From the sequence record PX930852.1: a stretch of DNA of 64,000 nt; one strand, given 5' to 3'. The position numbers and the translations under genes are program-made. This document shows positions 56 through 33,654 of the stretch, piece after piece. Origin of the DNA: a phage. The notes below the pieces were generated by a model. It saw nothing but the letters and a program-made list of their open reading frames with translations. It did not search any database and was not told the DNA's origin. The first letter of the stretch is position 1; each line of letters begins with the position of its first letter.

Positions 56-2047
56 TCACTCAGTTTCGAACGGGCAGTCATCTGCATCCTCACTTAATAC
101 AGGTGGAATCGTTGAGCTTTGACGCTGCTCTTCAGTATAGACTTCACCAGTCTCACGGTCAAACACTTCATCCTCATAATGTGGCAAAGAGTCATCGTAA
201 TGGTCTTCAGCTTCACCAATACCAAACTGTTGGCGAATATTTTCTGCTGCACCATCAATGTCAACTCCACAACCAGAGGCTTTAATGAGACGTCCTGTAT
301 CTGGATTGTACCAAGTATGACCAGCAATGCCTGTTGACTTACCGTGACGACGGCATTTAGTTAACTTGATTTTTGTCAAGTTTTTCTTAACAGGGTCTGG
401 GTCAACCTTGTTACGCATTAACAGAATGTTGTTCATAGAAATCTGGAAATACGCACCAGAACCTTTAATATCCTCTTCAGAGATATCTCCACCTTCGGAG
501 TTAGCCTTCTGACCACCTGCACTCTTACGAACGTGACAGACGTTCACCTGTGCATACTGGTAGCGTTTGCAACGACGCAATAGCTCAGATAAAACTTCCT
601 CTTCATCCGTATCTGAACGTGACAGAGCCAACGTAATAGGGTCAAGAATAATAATCTTACAGTCTAAGCTGTTAACAAGATAGTCAACAAACTCCAGCAA
701 GTTATCTTGGTCAATTGCCCCTTGATGGTCAACGATGTGGATACGACGACCTTTAGACAGTTCTGCGTGTGCCTTCTTCAATTCATCCCAATCACGTTCG
801 TCATAAGGAATCTCAGAAATCTGCTTGCTCAGGTGGATTGCACAGAGCATCTCCATCAACTCTTCATAGGTATCTTCTACAGGAATTACACCAATATTGT
901 AATCGGTATCTTTCCAAGCAGTATAAATCATTTCACGAGTGTATGCAGATTTACCCACTGAAGATGGTGCTGCCAGAGTTGTAATCTCACCTAAACCGTA
1001 ACCACCATAAGTCAGTCTGTTCAAATCCCCGAAAGATTCTGGGAAAGGAATCAATGGAATCTGACCACGATTCTTCATTGCCTCAAAACCATCTGCAAAG
1101 TTCTTGATACCAGCAGGGCAATAACGAGGTGCGTTGTAGATACGCTGCTTAAATCCTTCCAGAACTGTGTCTTTCTCTTTATAGAACTTTGTCCACCATT
1201 CGTTAAGGTCTTTTACACCCTCTGGATACTGGAATAAACGAACCTTCTCGATAGGTAAGATACCAGCAGCCTCTTTGGTAGCTTTAGCACCTGCTTCATC
1301 GTTATCAAAGCACAAGTAAATTTCATCAAATGATGTGATGTACTGATAGTTATCTTTGATAGACTTGATGTTTGCACCTGACGGAACAGATACATGACAG
1401 TAATTCTTACGACGAGATTTGTCCTTAATCGCAAGAGAAGTCATATAGATTGCTGTCGCACATTCCATCTCACCTTCCCAGATGAATAGACGGTTACCAC
1501 CTTCTGGAGCAATCCATGAACCGAACATTGCCAGTTCACCTTTAATGTCTCCAACACCACCTGAGAAGTCTTTTAGCTTACCTCGTAGGTGTTCTTTTGG
1601 ATGGTCTTCTGGATAACGATGACGTACACGGTAACCGACGTGCTCTAGCTTACCATCTTCATTACGTTTGTAAGTTGGATAGAAATGCGCATCAATTTCA
1701 CCGTCACTGTCAATGTCAACCTTGATACCCAAACGCTCAAGAACTTTTGCAGGAATCTTCCTGTCCTTTAAGTCCATTGCTTCAAGGTTTTCTTTCACAT
1801 CGTCTAAATCCATTCCACGGAAAGTACGGTTTTTATTGTCTGAACCAGTAGAATAAGTGCTCACGATTTGTCCTTTATCAAAATCCCACTCTGGGAAACC
1901 TTTGTTACAACTAAAGCAAGTCATTGAATAAGAATCATCGTCATGGTGATAGATTGAACCAGCATCTGATGAACCACAACGTGGACATGCGCAATGACCA
2001 ACAAACTGACCAGCCTCTTTCAATTTACGACCTTTAGACATTAGCAC
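56..2047 (-). CDS. bifunctional DNA primase/helicase (T7 gp4-like)
   Basis: 663-aa ORF; N-terminal CxxC..CxxC zinc ribbon (CACPRCG..CFSCNKG), acidic TOPRIM-like motifs (WEGEME, FDNDE), DnaB-type Walker A (APSSVGKSA) in C-terminal half. Confidence 0.8.
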   Translation of the reverse strand: MLMSKGRKLKEAGQFVGHCACPRCGSSDAGSIYHHDDDSYSMTCFSCNKGFPEWDFDKGQIVSTYSTGSDNKNRTFRGMDLDDVKENLEAMDLKDRKIPAKVLERLGIKVDIDSDGEIDAHFYPTYKRNEDGKLEHVGYRVRHRYPEDHPKEHLRGKLKDFSGGVGDIKGELAMFGSWIAPEGGNRLFIWEGEMECATAIYMTSLAIKDKSRRKNYCHVSVPSGANIKSIKDNYQYITSFDEIYLCFDNDEAGAKATKEAAGILPIEKVRLFQYPEGVKDLNEWWTKFYKEKDTVLEGFKQRIYNAPRYCPAGIKNFADGFEAMKNRGQIPLIPFPESFGDLNRLTYGGYGLGEITTLAAPSSVGKSAYTREMIYTAWKDTDYNIGVIPVEDTYEELMEMLCAIHLSKQISEIPYDERDWDELKKAHAELSKGRRIHIVDHQGAIDQDNLLEFVDYLVNSLDCKIIILDPITLALSRSDTDEEEVLSELLRRCKRYQYAQVNVCHVRKSAGGQKANSEGGDISEEDIKGSGAYFQISMNNILLMRNKVDPDPVKKNLTKIKLTKCRRHGKSTGIAGHTWYNPDTGRLIKASGCGVDIDGAAENIRQQFGIGEAEDHYDDSLPHYEDEVFDRETGEVYTEEQRQSSTIPPVLSEDADDCPFETE

Positions 2048-20071: not shown

Positions 20072-28093
<8,022 letters not shown>

Positions 28094-28094
<1 letters not shown>

Positions 28095-28333
28095 TACATT
28101 TTTCCTGCTCTTCTAAGTTCGTTGTAAGCAATTTCCTCTTTATACGACCTCTGAATCTCAAGAAATTGTCTCAATGATAATAAATCAGAGAATGTCATAG
28201 CAAAGAGTTGGTCAAGTGTTTCTTTACACCCTTCCATACCATAAATAGCAAGCACAAATTTCATCTCGTCTGCTTCTTCATAGGTTGCCTCTACAGCAGC
28301 ATCAGTTAGTGGTGTCTGTAGAGTGTTACCCAT
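28094..28333 (-). CDS. tail assembly chaperone, frameshift-extension ORF (T-like)
   Basis: 79-aa ORF in -1 frame relative to 28336..28734; TTTTTTC slippery heptamer about 40 nt before upstream stop. Confidence 0.5.
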
Positions 28334-28335
28334 GT

Positions 28336-28734
28336 TTACTGAGAAGTTAGGCTTTTGAAAATGCTTGCTTCGAAAAAACTTCCGAAGTTTGCCTCCAGCG
28401 CAAATGCTAAGTAATCAATAAATTCACCATAGTTTGCTTGGAAGTATGTATCAATATTAAGTGGGAAGTCATCAACAGTTGCCCCTTGAAATAACAGGGT
28501 AGCCATTTCTTCAAGGTTAATTTCTTCAATTCTGTCAAAACAAGCTTCAACAAGTTCTTTAAATGGAACCATTGGAGCTTCTTTCTTACCCTTGTCAGTC
28601 AGACTTGACAGCATCTGTGCAAAAGTTGGAACAACAATTTTACCCAACTTCATAGACATCTTAATACCATCTCTTGCCCCAAGCAGAACGATATTTACTT
28701 TCTTACCATTAATTACTCTAGATTCTGTTTTCAT
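28336..28734 (-). CDS. tail assembly chaperone (G-like)
   Basis: 132-aa ORF between tail tube and tape measure genes. Confidence 0.55.
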   Translation of the reverse strand: MKTESRVINGKKVNIVLLGARDGIKMSMKLGKIVVPTFAQMLSSLTDKGKKEAPMVPFKELVEACFDRIEEINLEEMATLLFQGATVDDFPLNIDTYFQANYGEFIDYLAFALEANFGSFFEASIFKSLTSQ

Positions 28735-28760
28735 TGTGATTCCTTAATACTTTTAAAAGA

Positions 28761-28795
28761 AACAAAAAAGGGGAAGACCTTTTAAAGTCTCCCCC
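28761..28795 (-). terminator. rho-independent terminator after tail tube gene
   Basis: GGGGGAGAC-loop-GTCTTCCCC hairpin followed by TTTTTTGTTTCTTTT in minus sense. Confidence 0.6.
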
Positions 28796-28807
28796 TTATA
28801 GGATTTA

Positions 28808-29254
28808 TTAAACACTTGACGCTGGAATTGTAGAAGTGTAGTCTAGCTTCTCACAACCAAAAATCCAAGTTTTAGAGTTCTGGTCACGACCAAGTTCAAT
28901 CTGCGGTAATTCCTGCAACCAAGCATTAATACCAGTTGCCAGAACAGAGCCTGATGGGTCGTAGATTACGAAGTTAGAAGAGATATCTTCTTCAAGTTCC
29001 ATATTGTCTTGTTTAGCTTGAATTGCAGAAAGCATCTGGTTAGAGAGAGAAGTCTGCATTAACTCAATCTCAATAGTACCTGTCTTGTCTGCATTTCTTG
29101 TCAGAGCAACTTGACCACCTGCACCAACAACTGGTGTCACAAGTGGTGATGTTCTCTGTAGACGCAAGAATGAATCTGGGGCAAAGCCTTCAATGGCAAT
29201 ACCATTCCAGCTACATACAACGTCTTTAGGGGAATATTGCTGATACATAGCCAT
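28808..29254 (-). CDS. tail tube protein
   Basis: 148 aa directly downstream of sheath gene; followed by strong terminator. Confidence 0.6.
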   Translation of the reverse strand: MAMYQQYSPKDVVCSWNGIAIEGFAPDSFLRLQRTSPLVTPVVGAGGQVALTRNADKTGTIEIELMQTSLSNQMLSAIQAKQDNMELEEDISSNFVIYDPSGSVLATGINAWLQELPQIELGRDQNSKTWIFGCEKLDYTSTIPASSV

Positions 29255-29269
29255 TCCAATTTACCTCTA

Positions 29270-30622
29270 TTATTCGTAAGCCACTGTACCTTTCAAGTCA
29301 ACATCCAAGATAGCCCCTGCTAAGATACCTGCGAAGGTAACGTCTTTCAGGATACGTGCTTTCTTGTCTGCTAAAGCAACTTGAGAGGCTTTAGGAACAT
29401 TAACTGTGTAAGATGACAGGAAGTTTCTGTTGACTGCTCTTTGCAGAGAGGTTTCAATGACTTGACGAATACGAGTAATACCAGTATCATCATAAGTAAT
29501 CTTACCACCCTTCTGGTTAATTAGCAAGTCTCTCAGAGAAGTTTTCAGGTCTGATTCTAACCAGTCAACACCACGGATGATATCAATCCATTCCCCACCA
29601 GAAGTAATCCCTCTACGAACCACTGGAACACCACCATCAAGGTCAATAAAGTTACAGTGACGTGCATCTAAAGCAGACTTCTGAATACTTGTCAGAGGTC
29701 TCTGATTAGATGGTTGTAGAGAAGCTGCTACACCAGTTAGCTGAGCATTACCCCAAGCAATCGAACCTGCGTCATATGGAGCACCATAAGCAATGTATGC
29801 CATCTCTGGATAATCTTCTGCTGCTGTGTGATGCCACAAGCAAACTGTACGAGTGTACATATTCTTAGCAAGCTGTGCTGGAACATCATTTGCACTGGCT
29901 AATTCTGTGCCTTGCAGTGCTGCTACATCTGAGTTAGCCGTAAAGAAGATTTTCTTGCGAGCCTGAATCTCAGAAGCCATTGCTAAGACAAACTGTTGAG
30001 TTCTGTCTTCTGCTGCAATGAAATACCAGTCAGTAGAATAAGCTTCGATAGCTGCCAGAGCAGTTGATGCTGTATCGGCAGTTGTACTTGCAATGTATAC
30101 AGTCTGTGCTGTGGTTGTTACTTTCACAAAGTCATTATCACCAGCTTTGGTAATAATCATTGTGGCAGAGCCATTGCTACCAGTTACATTCACAGAAACC
30201 TTATCTTTGATTGTTGGGTCAGCTTCAATCTGTGTTTTAAACTGTTGCAACACTACCTCAGCAGTGTCTGAGTCTTGTGCTGTGTACTGGTATGGTTGAG
30301 AAATTCCACCGCCAGCAGCTACAGTAATTGAGTAGTCTGTACTTTCGGTAACGGCATCAGGAATTGATACAGTGTACTGCATAGCACGTCTACCAATATA
30401 AAGCTGAGTTACTTTAGGAGTCTGACTCCAAAGTTGTTTAGCAGCCTTATATGCAGCAGAGTTTTCATCGAAATCTTCAGCAACTTCAGTTAAGGAAGTG
30501 TAACCACGTACTCTTTCTTCAAAATTATCTGTTGAAGCTAAGAATAGTGGCAAACCAAAACCTTCTCTTGTAGTTCCTGCGGTGTTCAATGTAATATCTA
30601 CATTAACAATTGGATTCCACAT
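29270..30622 (-). CDS. tail sheath protein
   Basis: 450 aa; sheath-tube-chaperone-tape measure gene order of contractile-tail phages. Confidence 0.65.
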   Translation of the reverse strand: MWNPIVNVDITLNTAGTTREGFGLPLFLASTDNFEERVRGYTSLTEVAEDFDENSAAYKAAKQLWSQTPKVTQLYIGRRAMQYTVSIPDAVTESTDYSITVAAGGGISQPYQYTAQDSDTAEVVLQQFKTQIEADPTIKDKVSVNVTGSNGSATMIITKAGDNDFVKVTTTAQTVYIASTTADTASTALAAIEAYSTDWYFIAAEDRTQQFVLAMASEIQARKKIFFTANSDVAALQGTELASANDVPAQLAKNMYTRTVCLWHHTAAEDYPEMAYIAYGAPYDAGSIAWGNAQLTGVAASLQPSNQRPLTSIQKSALDARHCNFIDLDGGVPVVRRGITSGGEWIDIIRGVDWLESDLKTSLRDLLINQKGGKITYDDTGITRIRQVIETSLQRAVNRNFLSSYTVNVPKASQVALADKKARILKDVTFAGILAGAILDVDLKGTVAYE

Positions 30623-32547: not shown

Positions 32548-33654
32548 TTAGTCTGGTTTAGCGTCAGAACGAACGTCTACCAGCAACTGAGGACGAGTAC
32601 AGTATGGCAGCATGTAAGAGTGAGCTTCAAAGTCGATACCTTCGTCACGGTCTTTTTCGTATTCGAATACGTACAGTTCCTGACCAAGTGTATTTGCATA
32701 ACCCATCTTAGGACATGGACCATATGCAACTTCGAAGATGTTGTTTGCTTCACCCAGCATAGAAACGTTAGGGAAAGCATGACCAACACCAACAGTTGCT
32801 GCTGCACCATCAATGCTCACCAGAGTGTGAACCTTACCACGCTTGTCTTTGAACTTACCGTTGTACTGGACAAACTTAACACCACCGTAGTAGAAAGTGT
32901 TCATGTGGGCCTGAACGCCGTCAGTACCACCAGTTCTCAGAGAACCAGTAATCTGCTGCCAAGCCAGTGGAGTCTGCTGTGCAAGATAAGCGTCACGAAT
33001 CTTAGGATGCTTAACCAGTTTGCTGAAGAACACACGGTCAACAACTACGTGAATTTCTTCACCGTTGATTACAGTGCCAGTCTTAGCTTCGTCTTCCATG
33101 TGCATACGCAGTTCTTCAATAGAAGCGTCGATGTCAGCATTAGGGTTGTCAAGGTCGAAGTAAACAGTCTTCTTCTCAACGTCGAACTGCTTGTACAGGT
33201 CAGCGTACAGAGTACCACGAGCATCAACAACTTTACCCTTCAGAGCTTGCATAAACAGGAACTCACGAGTAATATCGAACTTGGTACGAATCTTCATCAG
33301 CTTCTTAGCACGTACTACAGCTTCAGTAGTCAGTTCGTTTGCAGTGCCTGGCTGACGTACACCCTGAATTTCATCAGGAGTGATGCTTTCAACTTCTTTG
33401 AAGTACATCATTGGGAAGCTGATTTGACGAACACGCTCAGGTGCGCTAGTCTCTGCTTTACGGCTATCACGGTCTACCGCATCAAGCAAGCTAACATCCC
33501 AATCAGTCAAGTCCATAAGGAAAGTAGTTTGGGTGATTGGTGCTGAACGGAACAGACCTAAGTTGGAAATATACCCATAAGTATTTGGGATAGACTGGAC
33601 TTCACCAGTCAGGTCAGCAAGGAAAAATCTGCTTTTTTCAGAATTAGTCAACAT
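32548..33654 (-). CDS. major capsid protein
   Basis: 368 aa; downstream of protease/scaffold gene; strong RBS; expected high-expression position. Confidence 0.7.
   Translation of the reverse strand: MLTNSEKSRFFLADLTGEVQSIPNTYGYISNLGLFRSAPITQTTFLMDLTDWDVSLLDAVDRDSRKAETSAPERVRQISFPMMYFKEVESITPDEIQGVRQPGTANELTTEAVVRAKKLMKIRTKFDITREFLFMQALKGKVVDARGTLYADLYKQFDVEKKTVYFDLDNPNADIDASIEELRMHMEDEAKTGTVINGEEIHVVVDRVFFSKLVKHPKIRDAYLAQQTPLAWQQITGSLRTGGTDGVQAHMNTFYYGGVKFVQYNGKFKDKRGKVHTLVSIDGAAATVGVGHAFPNVSMLGEANNIFEVAYGPCPKMGYANTLGQELYVFEYEKDRDEGIDFEAHSYMLPYCTRPQLLVDVRSDAKPD

Follow-up and report, generated by a model that had tools for sequence, protein, structure and literature searches.

[quoted passage not shown] Next to a 132-aa product (the G equivalent), low-level −1 ribosomal frameshifting at U_UUU_UUC would yield a minor 213-aa fusion with a C-terminal T segment, and both would form a chaperone pair of the G/GT type. 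The window, by which we mean the whole analyzed stretch of 64,000 nt (record PX930852.1), has a GC content of 38.9%. The 1.5 kb around the slip site share 99.7% identity with KhF3 and skuden, two phages of E. coli, and match 295 phage records, nearly all of which belong to Felix O1-like myophages with hosts in Escherichia, Salmonella, Shigella, Citrobacter, and Erwinia. The best-match taxonomy is Ounavirinae, Felixounavirus, and judged by these matches, the source of the window is a Felix O1-like E. coli phage of this genus.

A candidate −1 frameshift had been proposed in an earlier sequence-only reading, which described a G/GT-type layout between the tail tube and the tape measure gene. Matches to Pfam and PHROG models now fix this gene order: together with the ORFs, they place sheath, tube, 132-aa chaperone, 79-aa ORF, and tape measure one after the other on the minus strand. 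The tube homologue in Erwinia phage Harbringer carries the label ‘tail tube protein’. All positions are summarized in Table 1.

Table 1. Tail genes and proposed frameshift elements in the window.
Feature	Position	Strand	Basis or remark
Tail sheath gene	30622..29270	−	DUF3383; phrog_205 ‘tail sheath’
Tail tube gene (upstream neighbour)	28808..29254	−	Pfam KPP10_Orf10; phrog_280
Tail assembly chaperone gene (‘G’ equivalent), 132 aa, TAA stop	28336..28734	−	ORF, Pfam, PHROG
Shine-Dalgarno-like GGAGG, candidate stimulator	28392..28396	−	13 nt 5′ of the heptamer
Slippery heptamer T_TTT_TTC	28372..28378	−	Zero-frame codons AGT TTT TTC (Ser119 Phe120 Phe121)
T segment of the predicted fusion	28094..28372	−	92 residues, RSKHFQKPNFSVN plus the 79-aa ORF, then stop
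79-aa ORF, 3′ part of the T segment	28094..28333	−	phrog_4963 ‘tail assembly chaperone’, E=2.8e-55
Tape measure gene (downstream neighbour)	25866..28094	−	Pfam TMP_3; phrog_4036, 1529 bits

Two features stand at the borders of the chaperone pair. The stop of the T segment and the ATG of the tape measure gene overlap as TAATG (28092..28096, minus strand), with an AGGA 8 nt upstream of this ATG, an arrangement that would suit translational coupling of this gene. In addition, a strong terminator-like hairpin (28768..28797, minus strand; 13 pairs, 6 of them G-C, followed by a T run) is situated in the 73 nt that separate the chaperone gene from the tail tube gene, and a terminator is annotated at the equivalent position in the records KhF2 and KhF3. 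The chaperone and tape measure genes may consequently be transcribed less than sheath and tube.

The 132-aa ORF was assigned by its matches to PF21822 Phage_TAC_15 (E=1.7e-19, 71 bits at a cut-off of 22), in which residues 9–124 correspond to model positions 1–124 of 127, and to phrog_1613 ‘tail assembly chaperone’ (E=2.9e-48). An AAGGA ribosome-binding site (28745..28741) is located 6 nt ahead of the chaperone ATG, and the TAA stop occupies 28338..28336. Just as the sequence-only reading had stated, a 79-aa ORF starts 2 nt beyond this stop; its ATG at 28333 is offset from the chaperone start by 401 nt, which places it in the −1 frame. The PHROG model listed for it in Table 1 matches end to end, and the usual label of this ORF is ‘putative tail tapemeasure chaperone’.

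No stop codon interrupts the −1 frame between 28414 and its end at 28094, and its overlap with the chaperone gene amounts to 76 nt. Within this overlap, T_TTT_TTC is the sole canonical heptamer. It covers the last base of Ser119 together with Phe120 and Phe121 in the X_XXY_YYZ register, and the codons confirm that it stands in the zero frame. The distance to the upstream stop, previously given as about 40 nt, is 40 nt from the first base of the heptamer to the first base of the stop codon. Reading after the slip proceeds through CGA AGC AAG and onward for 92 open codons, so that the downstream ORF is indeed reached without an intervening stop. The predicted GT protein would accordingly comprise G residues 1–121 and the 92 residues of the T segment, that is, 213 aa. 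A sequence search of the PDB with profiles of the G part and the T part returned no solved relative.

A slippery heptamer alone is weak evidence. The window contains 73 in-frame X_XXY_YYZ heptamers in 15,988 codons (67 long ORFs), or approximately one per 220 codons, and the chance expectation for the 25-codon overlap is about 0.11 heptamers. Only one of the 73 is followed by a long open −1 frame, namely the slip-site heptamer with its 92 codons, while the runner-up reaches 35. What places the site well beyond chance is that it is conserved between genera and that synonymous change around it is suppressed.

With regard to conservation, which supplies the decisive evidence, the 82-nt slip region is identical in about 200 deposited Felixounavirus genomes, including Felix O1. 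T_TTT_TTC is likewise found in frame within the −1 overlap of Moogle (Mooglevirus), mistaenkt (Suspvirus), Erwinia phiEa21-4 and SE5 (both Kolesnikvirus), and Yersinia phage P778, and the chaperones of these phages are 41–82% identical to that of the window. In relatives at 24–50% protein identity, the heptamer becomes T_TTT_TTT. Using blastn at low stringency, only a 41-nt island (28349..28389, 92.7% identity) was found in common with the Erwinia phages, the rest of the chaperone gene having diverged past blastn detection. Further relatives were picked from IMG/VR by peptide patterns upstream of the site, with the site itself excluded. In their alignment, Phe-Phe at the slip site forms an invariant column, and it is encoded within T_TTT_TTY in 28 of 32 distinct loci. 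The loci L065, L067, and L069 have lost the T run; three codons further downstream, their conserved TGKG motif contains G_GGA_AAR. Several IMG/VR lineages possess both heptamers. L047, L048, L062, and L064 were grouped with the three loci in the G_GGA_AAR observation. As judged from these alignments, the replacement of a lost T run by G_GGA_AAR indicates selection for a slip site as such and suggests that the site turns over within one protein family.

The synonymous positions show a corresponding pattern. In a test on codon-aligned genera, in which the Fisher P is inflated by non-independent pairs and which, like the other conservation statistics, ignores phylogenetic kinship, synonymous codon identity amounted to 0.89 for residues 116–128 versus 0.54 for the rest of the gene, with a peak of 0.95 just 3′ of the slip site. 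Suppression of this kind is the signature expected of a stretch that is putatively dual coding. Ounavirinae also conserve a second, weaker tetramer, U_UUC at Ile125-Phe126, which could add to slippage; since distant relatives lack it, the parsimonious choice of site is the heptamer.

The part of the −1 frame beyond the slip site was also compared. The −1 extension measures 83–112 codons across the family, and the alignment shows its peptide to be conserved between genera even ahead of ATG 28333 (FFR-K-FQKP). In Kolesnikvirus and most of the distant lineages, the first ATG, GTG, or TTG of the −1 ORF appears at codon 55–62 of approximately 92, and therefore the conserved N-terminal two thirds can be reached only from the upstream frame. 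In the records of these genomes, the region is unannotated or a 37-aa fragment is called.

These data bear directly on an explanation without any recoding, by which the 79-aa ORF would be made separately from ATG 28333 through termination-reinitiation, and which we regard as unlikely. It draws on the ATG 2 nt past the G stop in Felixounavirus and Suspvirus, on the Mooglevirus ATG, which follows a few codons later and is accompanied by a Shine-Dalgarno (SD)-like motif, and on the two distinct CDS listed in most GenBank records. However, ATG 28333 has no SD-like motif in the 12-nt window upstream, and it is predicted to lie within the base of a hairpin. Moreover, separate initiation is at odds with the missing starts in the first 55–62 codons in Kolesnikvirus and most of the distant relatives and with the conservation of the peptide ahead of the ATG, including its synonymous sites. 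Termination-reinitiation could coexist with a frameshift, but it leaves the conserved heptamer unexplained, and independent initiation at ATG 28333 is possible in Felixounavirus only. The hairpin in question (28279..28334, minus strand) has a predicted energy of about −22 kcal mol−1, with z = −1.8 for the 110-nt segment, and its basal stem CAUGGGU/ACCUAUG holds the ATG; according to this folding, separate starts on the 79-aa ORF might be held back by it. Mooglevirus and Suspvirus have a comparable hairpin that differs in sequence, whereas Kolesnikvirus and the Yersinia phage have none. Taken together, the conserved heptamer, the missing start codons, and the suppressed synonymous change support the candidate −1 frameshift of the sequence-only reading.

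A second explanation retains the fusion protein and shifts its origin to transcription. RNA polymerase would occasionally add a U on the T6 run, and the resulting U7 mRNAs would encode the same 213-aa fusion. The slip site is a homopolymer, and with an extra U it would read AGU UUU UUU CGA (S F F R), which makes the protein identical under both mechanisms. T7 is found in distant relatives, and it also occurs in one deposited genome, that of CL1 (L045, OK040806.1, locus 345..986), as a sign that polymerases or sequencers slip at the run. Here, T7 in place of T6 at the slip site creates a single 642-nt ORF, which is exactly the predicted 213-aa GT and is labelled ‘tape measure chaperone’. The T7 form was present in 1 of 255 records and the identical T6 form in 197 of 255, and the T7 of CL1 probably reflects either a rare mutant or an error in sequencing the homopolymer.

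Penno et al. 2015 reportedly described transcriptional slippage on a short run with a strong nascent-RNA hairpin upstream. In the window, the upstream hairpins are negligible. The hairpin AACUU-NNN-AAGUU at the start of the U run reaches −1.2 kcal mol−1 and does not surpass shuffled sequences (several lineages show it again, at 0 to −3.4 kcal mol−1), and the terminator-like element at 28398..28382 consists of a weak 6-pair stem with two G-U pairs, whose match count is within chance. Bacterial RNA polymerase is described as slipping productively on runs of about 9 A/T (PMC5009743), compared with which T6 is short. Furthermore, the lineages without the T run carry G_GGA_AAR, which is a ribosomal heptamer and not a homopolymer, and every lineage keeps the run in the X_XXY_YYZ register, although polymerase slippage needs no register. 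Transcriptional slippage is thus considered rather improbable as the source of the fusion. Finally, the idea that the heptamer is a by-product of Ser-Phe-Phe in an AT-rich genome and the downstream ORF unrelated can practically be dismissed, despite the background frequency of heptamers given above, since keeping the wobble T and TTT for the first Phe has a chance of at most about 1/4 per independent lineage and yet both persist in nearly all IMG/VR loci, a lost heptamer was replaced by another, no other heptamer in the window opens a long −1 frame, and synonymous variation is suppressed around the site.

For ribosomal frameshifting, the question of stimulatory signals arises. The search for a downstream stimulatory structure, put forward together with the frameshift candidate, came out negative: folds of 40, 60, and 90 nt in 11 lineages showed no structure at the canonical spacing of 5–9 nt, and neither the five-genus consensus nor Rfam supplied one. 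The first 40–60 nt 3′ of the heptamer fold with −1.0 to −3.2 kcal mol−1 and z above 0, the consensus structure of the five-genus alignment reaches −1.6 kcal mol−1, and the Rfam scan of 27900..28900 (E up to 1) gave only two sub-threshold chance matches. The search covered pseudoknot-free secondary structure by folding, dinucleotide shuffles, and alignment. Two hairpins described above were also rejected as stimulators. The one at 28334..28279 starts 38 nt downstream and is not conserved outside three genera, and AACUU-NNN-AAGUU would be within the ribosome during the slip.

Upstream of the heptamer, the SD-like GGAGG is a plausible candidate for a stimulator of the frameshift, based on its predicted pairing and its distribution. 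The predicted anti-SD duplex has an energy of −9.3 kcal mol−1, and only 3.5% of random 30-nt windows of the genome reach −7.5 kcal mol−1. Its spacing of 13 nt falls within the range reported as stimulatory (6–17 nt upstream of the motif, PMC4066793). SD-like motifs show a modest enrichment, being found in 10 of 14 representative lineages versus 5.5 expected (P about 0.01) in a synonymous randomisation that assumes uniform codon use and ignores phylogeny; they are absent from Kolesnikvirus, Yersinia P778, L041/L055, and L102. The motif of the window sits in CTG-GAG-GCA, and distant lineages have theirs 11–14 nt upstream in other codons (AAG-GAG, CGG-GAG, AGG-GAG).

It is conceivable, if on balance doubtful, that these elements represent a compact frameshift cassette of the chaperone family around Phage_TAC_15, consisting of a U-rich heptamer fixed on the invariant Phe-Phe and a dnaX-like internal SD stimulator 11–14 nt upstream, with no downstream structure. 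Equally tentative are its two extensions, namely that the SD sequence would be kept through CTG-GAG-GCA, AAG-GAG, or the rare Arg codons CGG/AGG followed by GAG, and that G_GGA_AAR three codons downstream would replace the heptamer in some lineages. To our knowledge, a family-level frameshift cassette around Phage_TAC_15 has not been reported previously. If true, it would provide a family-level account of how frameshift efficiency is set.

In the course of translation that we infer for the ribosomal frameshift, most ribosomes would complete the 132-aa chaperone and terminate at 28336. A minority would slip backward by one nucleotide with two tRNA-Phe on UUU-UUC of U_UUU_UUC (28378..28372), the pair (anticodon GAA) moving from UUU-UUC to UUU-UUU with pairing preserved at every position. 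The slipped ribosomes would then enter the −1 frame at CGA and translate 92 more codons to give G(1–121) plus T. As is the case for dnaX and IS911, GGAGG may pair with the 16S rRNA and thereby raise the efficiency. If the pair works like lambda gpG/gpGT and P2 gpE/gpE+E′, G and GT would coat the tape measure protein via their common G part, the T extension of the rarer form would recruit the tail tube protein, and the slip efficiency would determine the G:GT ratio.

Regarding this efficiency, a survey in E. coli found UUN and AAN codons to be most shift-prone, and all-pyrimidine ZZN codons and homogeneous X/Z motifs to shift better than mixed ones (PMC4066793). As U-rich heptamers fall well short of A_AAA_AAG (PMC5009743), a low efficiency like that of lambda is to be expected, and frameshifting in the window phage is probably of low efficiency. 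In the literature searched, no experimental test of the frameshift was found for any Ounavirinae phage.

The frameshift in Felix O1-like phages is already known by annotation and publication. In the RefSeq record of Moogle (NC_027293), the orthologous pair is covered by one joined CDS named ‘tail assembly chaperone’, and a −1 frameshift of the tape measure chaperone was published for the Citrobacter phages Moogle, Michonne, and Mijalis of the genus Mooglevirus, these reports being sequence-based predictions. The Moogle G protein is 76% identical to that of the window, with T_TTT_TTC at the same codons and with the same overlap and neighbours. However, Moogle belongs to another genus, its G ORF has three additional codons, and the closest in-frame ATG in its −1 ORF lies further downstream. 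Modestly new are the family-wide fixation of the Phe-Phe site, the occasional switch to G_GGA_AAR, and the candidate SD-like stimulator.

A closely similar layout is known from phage P2, where Christie et al. 2002 demonstrated a −1 frameshift for gpE/gpE+E′. As cited in PMC3091744, the shift occurs at TTTTTTG without a downstream hairpin, and the extension ORF lacks its own start codon. P2 is a myophage as well, with a small chaperone ORF beside the tape measure gene and a U6N heptamer. The P2 heptamer ends in G, whereas that of the window ends in C, and the two systems are likened by layout, not by sequence homology. The P2 frameshift is established by experiment, in contrast to that of the window, which is predicted from sequence.

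The best-known G/GT pair is gpG/gpGT of phage lambda (Levin et al. 1993; Xu, Hendrix and Duda 2004, 2013, 2014), for which PMC5009743 gives a summary. Relative to the major tail and tape measure genes, the lambda pair is placed as in the window, a single start codon is used, and the longer, minor product results from a −1 shift near the 3′ end. In addition, some distant relatives of the window chaperone carry the lambda-type G_GGA_AAR. Lambda differs in being a siphovirus with G_GGA_AAG, and the window chaperone belongs to another Pfam family, Phage_TAC_15. The product ratio of roughly 30:1 and the binding partners are known for lambda only. A G/GT system further implies a fusion made at a low percentage, with both products required for tail assembly yet missing from the virion. 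Of the features used as G/GT criteria by Xu, Hendrix and Duda 2004, the location, the −1 overlap, the zero-frame heptamer, and the conservation were all found here.

With dnaX and IS911, the window site has in common an internal SD-like sequence upstream of the heptamer at a stimulatory spacing. dnaX, on the other hand, combines A_AAA_AAG with a strong downstream stem-loop and shifts at approximately 50% (PMC5009743). Compared with both systems, the window site has a U-rich heptamer and no downstream structure, and not all genera possess the SD-like motif.

For this pair, the entries inspected in Felixounavirus, among them that of Felix O1, give either two small, separate CDS or proteins labelled ‘unknown’. 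In skuden, Sl26, and BPS17L1, the 79-aa ORF is annotated as a CDS of its own. According to the authors of PRFect, under-annotation of this kind is common. Felixounavirus records should carry a joined tail assembly chaperone CDS, like that of Moogle. In a knockout screen of the Felixounavirus Bas63, positions 0 to about 21,000, which mainly encode structural proteins, scored as uniformly essential at the level of regions. While the frameshift site of the window leaves the current understanding unchanged, it adds a further group of virulent phages with contractile tails to those in which the G/GT rule holds. The family also offers a natural variant series for low-level −1 efficiency in enterobacteria, comprising U6C, U7, and G_GGA_AAR as well as lineages with or without the SD-like motif.

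Two observations were made elsewhere in the window. A cluster of 25 tRNA genes lies on the minus strand (39799..45025) and contains a tRNA-Phe(GAA) (40724..40799), the decoder of both slip-site codons, as well as a tRNA-Arg(ACG) (41974..42049), which would read CGA, the first codon in the −1 frame. On the plus strand, a 308-aa ORF with a GTG start (32620..33546) runs antisense to the major capsid gene (32548..33654, minus strand) and is most likely a non-coding shadow ORF.
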